The notes: generated from the letters alone by a model not told the origin. Positions 46,320 to 64,000 are shown, numbered from the stretch's first letter. The stretch is 64,000 nt of DNA from an uncultured Planctomycetota bacterium (GCA_963849325.1 CAWKHF010000012.1:192001-256000), one strand, 5' to 3'. Numbers and translations: made by a program.

Positions 46320-46718
46320 TCATTGAGTACCTAAGAAGGTTTGGCCCTTAACCATGACATCACTTTTAATGTCGTATTTGTTTCCGGCTAGGTTAGCATT
46401 GAGAATGACCTGGAGGTCCAGACTGTACCGCTCGTTCCTTGCGGTTGCGACTATATTGACATAAAAAGAGATTGATAATGTGTTAATACAAACGAGGCGT
46501 GGATTAGAAGTTTCCACGCCATCGACGAGGCAATTACCTGATCCGATAAACTCGATAAATTCCATGTCTAAGTCGCTGTATTGACGACGAAGCACCCCTA
46601 GCAAGTGCTCACTTAGAAAAGCTCCCAAATCAGGCACGAGGTCCATACGCTCAAGTATCGCATTGATCGCGTCAGCCTTTTCGAAACCCAAAACGGCAGG
46701 TTGATGTGGACTTGTCAT
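46320..46718 (-). CDS. Hypothetical protein, candidate orphan immunity gene
   Basis: Lower-GC ORF following the cassette E immunity candidate. Confidence 0.55.
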   Translation of the reverse strand: MTSPHQPAVLGFEKADAINAILERMDLVPDLGAFLSEHLLGVLRRQYSDLDMEFIEFIGSGNCLVDGVETSNPRLVCINTLSISFYVNIVATARNERYSLDLQVILNANLAGNKYDIKSDVMVKGQTFLGTQ

Positions 46719-46748
46719 GATCTCTTCTTCCTCGCTTGCCAAACCAAG

Positions 46749-47141
46749 CTACAGGGGATTGGCAGAACAAAGGCGTTCTGTAATGTCTCGAAGCTGTGCC
46801 AAACACTCCGCTTCCGTTGAATAGCGACACTCACCTATCTTCGCTACAACATCTTGCCCTACTGCATGGATCCTTCTCACGTCGGCTTCGAGGAGAATGG
46901 CCGTTTCGGTCACGGTGATCTCCAAACACCAACTAACGGCTTCTCCGGAAACCAATTCTACGTCTACGTACTCCTCAAGCCGGTAACTGTCGATTAAGTC
47001 CGGCATTTCAACCACGTGCTTAACCGATCTTACTTCATTAAGCTCACTTAGGTGAATCGCATGGAGCTTGAGCCGGCGGTGGCATTCGCCAATCGCCAGA
47101 AGTAGCGGGAATCCGCGGACATTAATTGAAATCGTGTTCAT
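46749..47141 (-). CDS. Candidate immunity protein for cassette E
   Basis: Starts 4 nt after the toxin stop codon. Lower GC and acidic. Confidence 0.7.
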   Translation of the reverse strand: MNTISINVRGFPLLLAIGECHRRLKLHAIHLSELNEVRSVKHVVEMPDLIDSYRLEEYVDVELVSGEAVSWCLEITVTETAILLEADVRRIHAVGQDVVAKIGECRYSTEAECLAQLRDITERLCSANPL

Positions 47142-59926: not shown

Positions 59927-62900
59927 TAGGGAAGTTCAATCACTCGCAGCACAGTAAGGTCCGTCTGGCTTGGCGTCACCGGCACCCGCGGTCCTGGCAG
60001 CGGGGCATCCGGGATGATAGGCGGTTCTTTCAGTCGTGCAAGCAAACGCCGCGTCGAGTCGATAATTTTGATGTTTGTCGGCTTCATCCCTGCCTCGCTG
60101 AGTGCTGCCAGTGAACGAGTGTTGGCCGACACGAGGGCCCATCAGCCATCTTGAAAGCTTCAATTGGCAACTGATCCGGCGTCATTTTTCCCGCACGCAA
60201 GTCAGCAGCCACATCACTAATTAGTCTCCCAGCAAGTTCTGGCGGCCGGCCTTTCGTACCAAATGTTGGCCCAACACGTTTCTGCCCGAACAACGGCCCT
60301 GCCGCTGACTGGGAAGCAGGCGGCACCACTGGCGCCGGCGTGACCGGAGCCGGCTTTGGACCACCCGGTGCGGCAGGGGGCGGAGCGGGCGGCTTGGGCG
60401 CGGCAGGCTGGCGGCCGCGGAGGAAATTGCGCCCACCCTTGACAGCGACGGGCAAAAGCAGGGCCGCCACCTGCAGGCCCGTCTCTCCCAGCATCTGACG
60501 TTGCTGGGCGGGCGTCAAGCCCAGATGACGACCCGTCGCCAAGTCCTCTCCCGTCCAACCCGTGTACGCCCGCTCACCCCCGTCGCGTCGGCCAGGCCGC
60601 CCCCAAGCGATTGCAACACCGACTGACCCTGGTTGAAACCGCGATCCGCCGCGCTGGACAACGCCGACACCGCCAGCATCCCCATGCCAATGGCAAACAG
60701 CACCGGACCGGCGCCCGGAATCAACAACGCCACCGCACCCAGACCCACGCCCGCACCAACCATCGCCACCGTCTTCCAACTGGGGAAGAAATCGATGAAC
60801 GTCTGCCAGCCGCTCTGCGGCGGCGGCGGATTGACCTGGGCGATGACCAGATCATCCAGCGAACGCGCCGCATCGATGTCGCGGCCTTGTTGGGCACTTT
60901 GCACGTTGGCGTTGACCTGGTTCTGCACTTGATTGAGCAGGGCCGCCCGCTGCGTGTCGGCCAGGCTGATGCTCTGGGTCGTCTGGTCGGCGTTCTTGGC
61001 CTGGGCATCGCTGACGGCGGCGTTGACGGCGCCGATGATGGCGGCGGGTGCCGGCGCGACTTCGGCCTGCACTTGCCCAGCAGCGGCGTCGGCCGCCGCC
61101 TGGATGGCGGCATCGGCCGCCGACGCTTTCTGGACGACGCTGTCGTGAGAGACGGTGGCCACCTGGGTATCATGCGTCTGGGCGGCGCTGGTATCCTTGT
61201 CTTGCTGCCTTTTTGGTCCTGAGCGAGTTGGTCACTGCCGCTCTTGACGGCGGCGTCCTGGTCGTGGGCCGCTTGATCGTCAGCGGCGTCCACGGCTTTC
61301 TGATCGGACGCGGCAGCGGGGGCCTCGGTCTTCTCCCATGTGTTGGCGGCGTCCTGATCGGCGTTAGCGTCGGCGACAGCGGCAGCGGCTTCATCGTTAT
61401 CGTGAGCGGCGGCATCGAGCGTGGCCGCGTGCTCGTCCGCTTGCCAAGCCGTATCCACGGCCGTTACCTCATCGGCGGCCGCCTGCACCTCGTCATGCGT
61501 ATCGGCCACTGCGGCCTCTGCCTCCGTTTTGACGGCCGCTTGAGCGTTGCTGGCCTCGGCGTTGCTCTCGGCATCCTCGGCCTTGGCCTCGGCTACGGTC
61601 TTGTCTGTCTCGGCGTTGAAGTCGGCGTCCGTATCCGCGACGTCGGCCGCGGCGTCGGACTCGGTGCCCTGGACCCAGGCAGCCATTTCCACGTCCAGCA
61701 AGTGGGCGTAGCGAGTCCCCGATTGCTCGGCCCAATTATGCAGGGCATCGCTCTGGACAGACAACACCGCATCCACTTGCTGCTGCCATGCCGCCATCTC
61801 CGTATTATTGCAGTCCTCGACAGCCGTACGGGCCGCATCGAGAGCGACGCTGTCGGCCGTGGCCGTATCCGCGTCCCACTGCTCGGCGGCGGCCGCATCC
61901 GCGAGTTGCTGGGTCTCCCAGGCGGCATCCACCGCATCCGTCCAGGCCACGCCGGAGGCGGCGTCGGCTTCGTCCTGGGCCACGTCGGCGGCGGTGACGG
62001 AGTCGTCCAACGTCACACCCGCCGCCGTCACCGCCGCGATGTACGGCGCATACGCCGCCGCGTTGGTCTGCTCCTCGGCGGAGGCCGCCGCCTCGTAGCT
62101 GTCCGTCCACGTCTGCTCGGCGTCGGCCAGGGCATCGTCGCATTGCTTCTGGGCGTCGGCGATGGTGTCGTCGCGCACCTGCGCCGCCGCGTCCACGGTG
62201 TCGGCCAACGCCTGATCGGCAGCGGACAGGGCATCGGCCAGCGTCTGCTTGGCCGCGGTCATGCCGTCGTCATAGGTCAATTCGTTATCAGCCTGTGTGT
62301 CGGCCAACGTCTGCCCGGCGTCGGCGGCCGTGTCCAGGTACGCCTGCAGAGCTTGCGCCTTGGCCGTTTGCAGGTCGGCCAGCGGCTGGGCCAGCGCCTT
62401 GGTGTAGCCGGCGTTGGCGTCGTTGACGGCGTTGTTATAGGTTTGGCGAGCGTTGGCGTAGGCATCGTACTTGGTCTTCTCGATGGCGTTGGTCGCGGTC
62501 TGCTGCACCATCTGGGCGGCGCCGTCGGCGGTGACCTGCTTGATGTAGGCGTCGTCTCGGGCCAGCAGGTAGGTCTGCTGCGCCTGCCGCAGCTCCTTGG
62601 TCACGGCCAGACCGGCATTGGGATCGTTGCTCTGCTCGGCGTTGTTATAGTCGGTCTGATATTGGCCATCGGCGAAGTTCCAGTATGTGGCCGCGGCTGC
62701 CTTGACGGCCGTGTTGTAGTTCGCCAGGTCTTTGTTGAGGGCACTGACGTAATCGGCCTGGGTGGACTGACGGGCTTTGGCGTATTGCGCGTCCACCGGG
62801 TTGGTGGTCTGGATGAACTGCTGGGTGGCGGCTTGCCGCGCCGCCGAGGCGGCCTGCTGAGCGGCCTGGTCGGCGGCGTCGTAGATGCCCTGGGCCTTGG

Positions 62901-64000
62901 TGATAGCGGCGTCGCGGTCGTTGCCGGCGTCCTGGACAACGCTGTTGTAGTCGTTCTGGGCGTTGCTATTGGCCTGGTCGAAGGCGCTTTGCAGTTGGTT
63001 GGTCTGATCGTTGTAGGCGTTTTGGGCGTCGGAGATGGCGGTGTTGTAGTCGTCCTCGGCCTGGCCCTGGACGGTGTTGTAGGTGTCGTTGGCTTGTTGG
63101 GTGGCCTGGTCGCTGGTGGCCTGGGCGGCGGTGGCGGCATCGTCGTAGGCAGAGTCGGCGGCGTCCTCGGCGGTCTGCCGGTCTTGGGCCGACTGGTTGG
63201 TGGCATCGGTGTAGGTTTGGCCGGCGGCGGCGACGGCTTGATCGTAAGCCGTTTGCGCAGCGGCGACAGTTTGGTCGTGGCTGGTCTGGTTGGCGGCGAG
63301 GGCGTTGTTGTAATCCTGGTCGGCCTGGTCCTGAGCCGCCTGCTCGGTGGCCGCGTCGCTGGCGACGGTCTGGTTGTAGGTGTTATCGGCGGTGTCGTAG
63401 GCGTTTTGCAGGTTGGCCTGGACGGTGTTCATCTGGTCGTTGAGGGTGGCCTCGGCCTGCTGATTGGCGGCATCGTCGGCGGTCTGGGCGGACTGCGTGG
63501 CGGCCTGAACGTTGGGATCCTGGGAGAAGTCGGGCACGGTGGTGGCGGCTTGGTCGTCCGGGCCGTTGGCGTAGTCGGCCTCGGCGGCGTTGGCGGCCTG
63601 GTCGAAGGTGGCCTGGTTCTGATCGCCGCTGGTCTGGGCAGCGGCGTCGGCTTGCGTCTCGGTCGCCGTGGCGGCGGACTCGGCGTCGGCGTCGGTCTGG
63701 GCGAGTTGCTGCTGCGCTTGCTGGTCCGCTTGCTGCTCGGCTTGGTCGGCGTTGTCGAGGGCGTTCTGCAAGGTCTGCTGATCGGCGGCATCGCGGCTGG
63801 TGTTGGCGGCGTCGGCGGCGGTGCTGCTGTCGTCGAGGGCTTGCTGCAGGGTGCTGGTCTGGTCGCTCAGTTGTTGATCGTCGCTCTGGGTGCGATTCTG
63901 GTAGGCGGTGTCGGCGGCGTTGGTGCTGGCCTCGTCGGTGGCGTCGGCGTCGGCCTTGACGGTGTTATAGGTATCGTTGGCCGTGTCCACGCTGGTGTTG
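59926..64000 (-). CDS. Polymorphic toxin cassette A (5' end outside window, frameshifts near 61210, 60570 and 60135)
   Basis: Stalk colinear with cassette B, then the TM block and a Pro-rich linker without HINT. Tail ISDVAADLRAG..PDQLPIE..SANTRSLAAL. Confidence 0.85.

Follow-up and report, generated by a model that had tools for sequence, protein, structure and literature searches.

The closest described analogue of the toxin locus analyzed here is UmbC of the Streptomyces umbrella toxins (Zhao et al., Nature 2024, PMC11062931), with which it was compared by description. The locus is an array of toxin genes, designated cassettes A to E, in a 64,000-nt stretch of DNA from an uncultured Planctomycetota bacterium (GCA_963849325.1, CAWKHF010000012.1:192001-256000), hereafter called the window; the source genome is referred to as G000, the window being G000:C12:192001-256000, and a second genome containing a complete toxin gene as G102. 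According to the main description of the umbrella toxins, UmbC is a large polymorphic toxin whose long, helical coiled-coil stalk ends in a HINT domain and a variable toxin, with immunity genes in its vicinity, features that the planctomycete toxin appears to share; in UmbC1, the toxin is a cytosine deaminase (PMC11062931). Only UmbC is described there as carrying a twin-arginine translocation (TAT) signal and eight ALF repeats, which form a ring binding UmbB and the UmbA lectin spokes, and its stalk of ~30 nm is far shorter, with neither a hendecad array nor a membrane block in that description (PMC11062931). In contrast, the planctomycete toxin features ~1,300 residues of strict acidic 11-residue repeats and a two-helix membrane block preceding the toxin. 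The N-terminal regions of the full-length array protein (A) and of its G102 homologue (P0062) matched no Pfam family, ALF not having been sought by name, and the two complete loci, those of G000 and G102, have no conserved partner genes in common.

Further toxin groups share parts of this design. Like the Rhs/CdiA orphan arrays as outlined by Zhang et al. 2012 (PMC3482391), the locus combines a conserved carrier, a variable C-terminal toxin, and an immunity gene, and it likewise contains 5'-truncated toxin-immunity modules with a homology arm, a low GC (guanine-plus-cytosine) content, and a transposase at the edge. Unlike Rhs and CdiA, it features no RHS/YD shell, two-partner secretion (TPS) component, FHA beta-helix, VENN, or PAAR, and its carrier is all-alpha; CdiA and TPS features gave no Pfam match in any piece, the N-terminus included, at E ≤ 10, and the ShlB-type genes of G000 are located on contigs C4 and C6, not at the array. 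The PT-TG/PT-HINT group reported in the Pandoomain survey (mSystems 2026, PMC13483458) resembles the planctomycete toxin in its TG-type module, its PT-HINT domain, its variable toxin, its unannotated N-terminus, and an export route that is not known. In the main text of that survey, this group is placed mainly in the Streptomycetaceae, with an N-terminal region of ~300 aa, the PT-TG domain is called uncharacterised, and the string 'Planctomycet' is absent (PMC13483458). In contrast to this group, the TG module of the planctomycete toxin scores under the Pfam cut-off, and both a repeat stalk of 1,200 to 1,300 aa and two membrane helices come before it. The LXG toxins (type VIIb) also combine a helical N-terminal carrier, often with PT-TG, with a variable toxin and a downstream immunity gene; here, however, LXG gave no match, the host is a planctomycete of the diderm type, the carrier is repetitive and six times longer, and no Lap-like small helical partner genes were found upstream of the toxin. 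The array would work like Rhs, CdiA, and LXG toxins, but without the features that define each of them: its new element is the stalk, and its toxin-adjacent parts belong to or resemble known families.

One full-length gene and four truncated copies

We regard the array as very probably an interbacterial polymorphic toxin locus in which gene A encodes a stalk, a PT-TG-like block, and a variable tip, some cassettes contain an additional HINT domain, and the truncated copies form a store of tips. Among the homologues, a conserved carrier is combined with unrelated C-terminal toxin domains, a hallmark by which polymorphic toxins are recognized (sensu Zhang/Aravind 2012). The initial annotation, made from the sequence of the window, had described five co-oriented cassettes, four of which repeat an A/D/Q/T/N-rich region followed by a hydrophobic block, each cassette ending in a different C-terminal domain and a small gene of lower GC content. 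This layout was confirmed. Every array gene lies on the minus strand, in the 5'-to-3' order A, B, E, C, D, with A being full-length and the other four being 5'-truncated copies. The repeated region and the block are common to A, B, C, and D, with DNA identities ranging from 86 to 91% (A/B, 90.3% over 3791 nt; A/C, 86.0% over 1862 nt; B/C, 90.9% over 1858 nt; A/D, 90.7% over 810 nt), whereas E and C have in common only 314 nt of the HINT region (91.7%). The homology between cassettes stops just past the block, at 'RGRQ', from where the C-terminal parts differ, and each distinct C-terminal part has one to three small genes on its 3' side. The GC content is 0.67 to 0.70 in the stalks, 0.53 to 0.58 in the C-terminal domains, and 0.45 to 0.52 in the small genes, compared to 0.644 for the window. 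As judged by tblastn, the toxin family is confined to this single locus in G000.

The A/D/Q/T/N-rich region had been estimated at about 1000 aa in both A and B. A, however, is longer and continues for ~2.7 kb past the window. The sequence retrieved beyond position 64000 contained the rest of gene A and no export genes; the stalk frame goes on upstream (L001), and the gene reaches approximately window-equivalent position 66731. The N-terminal region of A is located in a separate 463-aa frame (L001:1340-2731, minus strand) that comprises a basic N-terminus followed by S/T/P/G-rich low-complexity sequence. Because P0064, an intact metagenome homologue of 1960 aa with 45% identity to the B stalk, reads without interruption across the equivalent junction of N-terminal region and stalk, A is considered one gene of ~2,270 aa. 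The predicted order of its product is a basic N-terminus, an S/T/P/G-rich spacer of ~460 aa, an acidic stalk of ~1,300 aa, the block, and the tip, with HINT in some cassettes. B begins ~600 residues into A, i.e., it lacks the ~600 N-terminal residues, and B, C, D, and E are thus progressively truncated copies. The sequence that they retain from stalk, block, or HINT amounts to 0.3 to 3.8 kb, and B, C, and D possess a homology arm to A of 0.8 to 3.8 kb, as orphan modules do. Over the 903 codons compared between A and B, differences fall on the three codon positions in a ratio of 65/55/140, corresponding to 113 synonymous and 96 non-synonymous changes; this bias and the continuation of the frame into Pfam-recognized domains indicate that the low-complexity frame is the coding frame.

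Rather than being silent orphans, B, and perhaps C and D, may be independently expressed toxins of graded stalk length, which we consider possible, although clearly the less probable interpretation. B features an ATG start, a stalk of ~1,240 aa, and block, HINT, deaminase, and Imm1 as a complete module; the frames of C and D are unbroken and could start at TTG or ATG; and the copies, which are old according to their identity of 86 to 91%, are nevertheless still open, with A/B substitutions favoring third codon positions. On the other hand, in each cassette, the onset of the stalk homology and the first potential start codon are no more than a few tens of bases apart, so that the copies resemble truncation products without a leader, and B, C, and D are devoid of the N-terminal region found in all three full-length proteins.

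The toxin-immunity reading had already been put forward in the initial annotation, and it was strengthened by domains which that annotation had overlooked, namely PT-HINT in three cassettes (B, C, and E) and, in B, a DddA-like deaminase followed by two Imm1 genes, and also by other known tips on a homologous stalk and block; the breakage of A and B into frame pieces had likewise gone unnoticed. A Pfam scan of the locus gave matches for 6 of the 17 proteins. PT-HINT (PF07591) was scored with 61.6 bits in B, 62.2 in C, and 45.2 in E (cut-off, 27.7; E values from 1e-11 to 1e-16). In the AlphaFold2 model of C, the HINT domain has a predicted local distance difference test (pLDDT) above 90 and matched 2lwy, a bacterial intein-like (BIL) domain, in Foldseek (E 3e-12, 38% identity, template modeling score 0.87 on the target); the Foldseek rows shown for the C model were exclusively intein/BIL. 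B, C, and E are PT-HINT members both by family score and by their Hint/intein-like fold. Cassette B (54647..59318) consists of the stalk (~55940-59318), the block (55511-55936), PT-HINT (54998-55468), and the deaminase (54674-54958), which matches the DddA-like/SCP1.201 family (PF14428) with 59.7 bits at a cut-off of 25. HxE and PCxxC are the zinc-binding motifs of these deaminases, and the translation of B contains 'HVEGH' as well as 'LPCQQ' with a preceding Cys. By its sequence, the B tip belongs to the DddA-like family of double-stranded-DNA deaminases, and the two genes directly downstream are members of Imm1 (PF14430; cut-off, 22.4). The first (54246..54755, 28.8 bits) has its likely true start near 54650, overlapping the B stop, and the second (53825..54283) scores 69.4 bits.

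A downstream gene matching an immunity family is found in the B module only, whereas A, C, D, and E are followed by other small genes. We consider the small low-GC genes after the tips to be putative immunity genes, by family match in the case of B and by position for the others. The in-window part of A (59929..64000) contains stalk, block (60408-60832), and C-terminal domain but no HINT, and its stop is overlapped by the start of a 204-aa candidate immunity gene (59312..59926; GC 0.50, no family match). A 123-aa gene of no known family, orf123 (53028..53399; GC 0.495), is situated between modules B and E. Cassette E (52325..52912) features the 3' part of PT-HINT and a unique C-terminal domain of ~98 aa, with neither stalk nor block, and the start of a 164-aa candidate immunity gene (51831..52325; GC 0.497, no family match) overlaps its stop. 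Cassette C (49053..51782), which is intact and encodes 909 aa, comprises stalk (50307-51782), block (49884-50306), PT-HINT (49362-49775), and a unique helical C-terminal domain (49056-49352). It is followed after 2 nt by a 131-aa gene (48655..49050; GC 0.505), again a candidate immunity gene by position. Cassette D (47146..48639), likewise intact and encoding 497 aa, comprises the stalk end (47965-48639), the block (47539-47964), and a unique Pro-rich C-terminal domain (47149-47526), without HINT; its module includes a 143-aa candidate immunity gene (46749..47180; GC 0.504, no family match) and, as a second small gene, the 140-aa orf140 (46320..46742; GC 0.454, no family match). Compared to PDB sequences, the tips of D, C, and E gave only chance-level or designed-protein rows. 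Complex prediction for the C-terminal domain of C (residues 811-909) with the 131-aa protein, run with no controls, gave values of 0.00, 0.74, and 0.15 relative to a mark of 0.34, which speak neither for nor against binding. As a side observation, this protein features a C-terminal, zinc-ribbon-like CxxC(x10)CxxC, unusual for an immunity candidate, and a weak match to anti-TRAP (RtpA) of 22 bits, far under the cut-off of 65.

According to the mechanism that we envisage, the toxin protein would be exported and its acidic coiled-coil stalk, judging from the geometry, would hold the tip away from the cell, with the membrane helices and the TG module acting at a membrane, either as an anchor in the producer or for entry into the target. 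HINT, a known autoproteolytic family, is predicted to free the tip by cleavage in those cassettes that possess it. The tip would then kill the target, in the case of B as a putative DddA-like deaminase, and the four unassigned tips may be toxic as well; the downstream gene would protect the producer, for which the Imm1 family matches argue. By analogy to Rhs/CdiA orphans, B, E, C, and D would represent a store of tips that may replace that of A by homologous recombination.

Repeat geometry of the stalk and nature of the block

The 1014-aa stalk frame of B is composed of 27% A, 14% D, 13% Q, 10% T, and 7% N, with 17.5% D+E versus 3% K+R. Its identity autocorrelation peaks at lags of 11 (z 3.6) and 22 residues (z 3.9), and the hydrophobic period is 3.67 to 3.69, i.e., 11/3. 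Written in rows of 11, the pattern 'xAxxxYxxAxx' keeps its register without indel for ~500 residues, and an equal period is found in the stalks of P0062, P0064, and the distant protein P0050. For residues 261 to 660 of B, AlphaFold2 returned helices at model residues 2-79, 85-267, and 271-399, the longest spanning 183 residues, with a mean pLDDT of 81.7 and values above 90 for ~130 residues on either side of a three-residue turn. For the stalk of C, five helices of 62 to 133 residues were obtained with pLDDT values of 55 to 75. The long helical carrier anticipated by the initial annotation thus agrees with both the 11-residue repeat and the AlphaFold2 helices. On the basis of repeat and model, the stalk is a predicted hendecad coiled coil, and we infer from the model that it folds into antiparallel coiled-coil hairpins with a length of ~20 to 27 nm.

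Searches with the stalk gave no match in Pfam and NCBIfam, no PDB sequence at E ≤ 1, nothing usable in the ESM Atlas, and, for the stalk model, no Foldseek row at E ≤ 1e-3; the best-fitting, non-significant Foldseek rows were generic antiparallel coiled coils, namely a chemoreceptor (2ch7) and the arms of SMC and Rad50. The initial annotation had raised both a distinct toxin class and a match of the stalk or the upstream part to a described carrier family. The novelty stands for the stalk, which is without any match; the parts preceding the toxin, however, are the known modules PT-HINT and a PT-TG-like block, and the latter occurs also in Rhs-type toxins. The features of established carriers that had been reported missing were indeed not found: RHS is absent from contig C12, all 30 matches in the genome being on C5 or C6, PAAR from the G000 genome, VENN from the six frames of the window, and FHA, TPS, and LXG families from the locus proteins.

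A period of 11/3 = 3.67 is also the signature of amphipathic 11-mer repeats, and the region might therefore be a lipid- or surface-binding array of the kind found in apolipoproteins, late embryogenesis abundant (LEA) proteins, and synuclein, coating a membrane or a toxin-carrying vesicle, instead of a rigid stalk. The two-helix membrane block directly after the repeat region would suit this idea, as would a match of the stalk-like region of P0050 to Pfam Apolipoprotein with an E value of 8.6e-6, which however amounts to 26 bits against a cut-off of 90. We consider it unlikely in view of an apolar face formed almost only by Ala and Tyr, a strongly negative net charge (D+E 17.5%, K+R 3%), the lack of the flanking Lys residues that lipid-binding 11-mers typically possess, confident long AlphaFold2 helices with tight turns as in coiled-coil hairpins, and best-fitting Foldseek rows that are antiparallel coiled coils, albeit none significant.

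The block that follows the coiled-coil stalk consists of two membrane helices and a G..D..TG motif. When the block of D was run with HMMER against all 1.84 billion representatives, 57 proteins were retrieved at E ≤ 1e-3, 23 of them at E ≤ 1e-10 and 6 at E ≤ 1e-30. The block alignment (n = 55) was built from 53 of the 57 matches plus P0062 and P0064, omitting P0028, P0035, P0043, and P0059, which matched only a flank or the query ends. PT-HINT was present in 15 of these 55 homologues and RHS repeats in 3, and 12 gave a sub-threshold PT-TG match at E ≤ 1; AHH, Tox-REase-5, Tox-REase-7, Tox-MPTase5, Ntox28, an EC869-like contact-dependent inhibition (CDI) toxin, a DddA-like deaminase, and Big_5 were found in single homologues. 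The best PT-TG match among the homologues had an E value of 3.2e-4 and 21.1 bits (cut-off, 23.5). When run on G000, the PT-TG model aligned at the expected place in the block of D, 'GVSAAYTGWTGEDLATG', with 9.7 bits and an E value of 8. In P0058 and P0048, the block follows what appears by eye to be the end of an Rhs core, neither protein having a Pfam match at E ≤ 0.001. AlphaFold2 confidence for the block was low (pLDDT 29 to 60 in the C model). From these sequence comparisons, the block is most likely a divergent PT-TG module preceded by two membrane helices, although below formal membership. Since unrelated proteins contain it as well, downstream of RHS repeats or of other N-terminal parts, the block is, as far as sequence tells, a portable pre-toxin module of several toxin classes.

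Relatives, export, and integrity of the genes

The best relative of the toxin is P0062 from G102, a genome of the same family as G000. This intact protein of 2206 aa (43% identity) comprises a basic N-terminus, (GGTS)n repeats, a Calx-beta domain, two PKD domains, a stalk of ~1,200 aa, the block, PT-HINT, and an LHH nuclease, and its gene is followed on the 3' side by a 136-aa gene. P0064 carries an HExxH domain as its tip, further differing tips are found in P0003-P0005, P0009, P0018, and P0065, and the same stalk and block with a DddA-like deaminase occur in B and P0007. The toxin family is rare. The stalk was detected in 3 of 200 other genomes of the bacterial family (G050, G102, and G152) and the block alone in G166; 94 of the 201 genomes of this bacterial family gave matches, which, apart from the stalk/block genomes, were essentially due to HINT, toxins of the HINT type being very common there. 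Among 400 genomes sampled outside the family, none contained the stalk and one, G409, matched through the block alone; all 400 belong to the same phylum. Otherwise, the stalk turned up in a handful of metagenome proteins. Word-indexed protein searches returned only P0003-P0005, P0009, P0064, and P0065. A scan of genome contigs with the stalk and block of C gave 91 pattern matches, none of which was confirmed, and with alignment A3, 1 of 13 pattern matches was confirmed, on a 2.7-kb contig of a Planctomycetota metagenome-assembled genome (MAG). A distant block-bearing protein, P0050 (1393 aa), has an unrelated N-terminus, after which a long helical region with a period of 3.67 leads into the two-helix/TG block, further helix, and Ntox28; this like order of parts suggests that the stalk-block pair is an older portable unit.

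An export route was not evident to the initial annotation, nor did the extended data reveal one: no secretion genes are located within ~10 kb at either complete locus. Their neighbors encode MgtC and WD40 proteins, glycosyltransferases, DUF1501/PSD1 proteins, and glycogen enzymes. DUF1501, PSCyt2, and PSD1 domains are typical of planctomycetes, and all three occur in genes neighboring the G102 toxin locus. A type VI secretion system sheath and PAAR were found in G102 only and ShlB in G000 only. The two ShlB/TpsB-type matches in G000 (C4:477988-478875 and C6:366586-367473) have identical scores and lengths and may reflect a duplicated region or an assembly duplication. Both genomes contain a WXG100 gene 2.5 to 3 kb from an FtsK/SpoIIIE-type ATPase gene (G000:C10:445890-449508 and G102:C1:1392651-1396462). 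This pair looks like a conserved type VII secretion system (T7SS)-like module of the planctomycete family and, as WXG100 is present in 155 of the 201 family genomes, it is not discriminating for the toxin.

The toxin could be a substrate of this T7SS-like module, as PT-TG toxins are in Gram-positive bacteria. WXG100/FtsK is the only tested system present in both genomes with a complete toxin gene, an all-helical stalk would suit a T7SS substrate, and the literature links PT-TG in monoderms mostly with LXG/WXG toxins (PMC13483458) and notes WXG/YueA-like modules in planctomycetes (Zhang et al. 2012, PMC3482391). Against these points, there is no specific association (WXG100 in 155/201 genomes versus the stalk in 3/200 others), the module is unlinked to the toxin, being on another contig in G000 and 440 kb off in G102, an LXG or WXG domain was not found in the toxin, and the G102 homologue contains Calx-beta and PKD domains, as Sec-exported surface proteins typically do. 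T7SS export thus appears improbable.

For the exported toxin that we favor, the N-terminus was compared with the leaders of other large proteins. About 65 large G000 proteins (e.g., on C5, C2, and C7 and at C12:165894) open with a basic stretch and the motif RPxLExLE(D/E)RxxP(S/T), as matched by a model built from 38 G000 leaders. This motif is of the LEPR-XLL type and looks like a common sorting signal of big surface proteins; LEPR-XLL (NF012209, motif LExLE(D/P)RxLL(S/P)) gave 15.6 bits for a canonical G000 protein and nothing at E ≤ 10 for A and P0062. Planc_extracel (PF07595) had no match in the N-terminus of either. By eye, 'RPMLEPLSSRDLP' of A resembles 'RPMLEALEDRTTP', and both it and 'LWRLEDRTMPA' of P0062 are similar to the leader motif. 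An LEPR-XLL or Planc_extracel leader in A and P0062 was rejected, being supported by neither NF012209, nor the 38-leader model, nor PF07595.

Within the window, A is distributed over four frame pieces (60721-64000, 60515-61162, 60135-60779, and 59929-60138), with an extra break at the N-terminal junction, and B over two, with a single break within the overlap 56274-56542. In the same genome (G000:C1:334967-343005), rpoB lies in four frame pieces (frames 2/0/1/2) and rpoC in three, i.e., three and two breaks over about 8 kb or approximately one indel per 1.5 kb in essential genes, a density about equal to that of A and B. The completeness of G000 is 84.7% despite just 14 contigs, and both intact homologues, P0062 and P0064, have no frame breaks. 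Because rpoB and rpoC are equally broken and the transposase at the array edge is split as well, the breaks of A and B are probably assembly errors, and frameshifts anywhere in the G000 assembly should not be taken as pseudogenes without reads. The least likely alternative, a decaying relic whose cassettes A and B would be genuine pseudogenes and whose value would lie solely in the immunity genes, as protection against the toxins of neighbors, could draw on at least three breaks of A in the window plus that at the N-terminal junction, on the one in B and its coincidence with a break of A, and on the bounding transposase, but it is at odds with the equally dense breaks in rpoB/rpoC, an 84.7% complete genome in 14 contigs, the split transposase, the intact cassettes C and D, and A/B substitutions that look constrained.

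Several observations weigh against an exported polymorphic toxin with a store of tips as proposed here. Neither A nor P0062 shows an evident classical signal peptide, the 38-leader model misses A (E above 100) and gives P0062 only 5.5 bits (E 14), and in a protein exported via Sec, a pair of membrane helices would normally be expected to arrest transfer. The PT-TG (PF14449) gathering score of 23.5 is reached by no block (9.7 in G000 and 21.1 in the best homologue). Four of the five tips (A, C, D, and E), like the small genes on their 3' sides, have no family match in Pfam or NCBIfam. The putative antiparallel packing of the stalk helices is derived from confidence values and non-significant Foldseek rows. 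G102 has a single toxin gene and no orphan array, so that arrays are not a constant feature of the toxin family. Finally, the only break of B (~56300) falls within ~10 alignment columns of one of the breaks of A (~61150), which random assembly error does not readily explain; the site is the locally most diverged stretch, where, compared to C and D, A lacks one base and B has one extra, and the coincidence could stem from a sequence context prone to errors, a hot spot of indels, or a regulated shift.

Genomic surroundings and significance

At its 3' edge, the array is bounded by an IS4-type DDE transposase gene on the minus strand (44775..46215), with PF01609 matched in both of two overlapping frame pieces. 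The window further contains a glycogen/alpha-glucan gene cluster (18889-30928) with the debranching enzyme GDE and several alpha-amylase-family proteins, followed by genes for a sigma-54 activator, a hybrid histidine kinase, an extracytoplasmic function (ECF)-type sigma factor, and a subtilase (42639-44666). RHS-repeat proteins are encoded elsewhere in G000 (C5:345311-347029, C6:594893-606186, and C6:800193-802688), so that this genome carries at least two kinds of polymorphic toxin carrier. In the literature on planctomycete polymorphic toxins, PT-TG, and coiled-coil stalk toxins, we found no such planctomycete carrier described; supplements, which were outside the scope, may list such proteins.

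A further yield of the array is four toxin tips and five small downstream genes, orf123 and orf140 among the latter, that fall into no known family, and the predicted B tip adds to the DddA-like deaminases, an enzyme family of interest for base editing. As a tentative and rather doubtful extension, the carrier may be a new delivery device, a self-contained, alpha-helix-only 'lance', tens of nanometers long, which is projected from the surface or released, inserts its two-helix, TG-type block into the target membrane so that the toxin can cross it, and uses a planctomycete-specific export without neighboring machinery. If this were true, the helical lance would be a counterpart of the umbrella toxins and CdiA. 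Carriers are the basis on which polymorphic toxins are classified, since the carrier shows the route to the victim, and planctomycetes possess an unusual cell envelope, their mode of toxin delivery not being known. Should the stalk prove to be part of a delivery device, it would provide a testable membrane role for the poorly understood PT-TG-type module and would extend the series of beta-helical CdiA, Rhs shells, and umbrella particles by a solution made entirely of helices.

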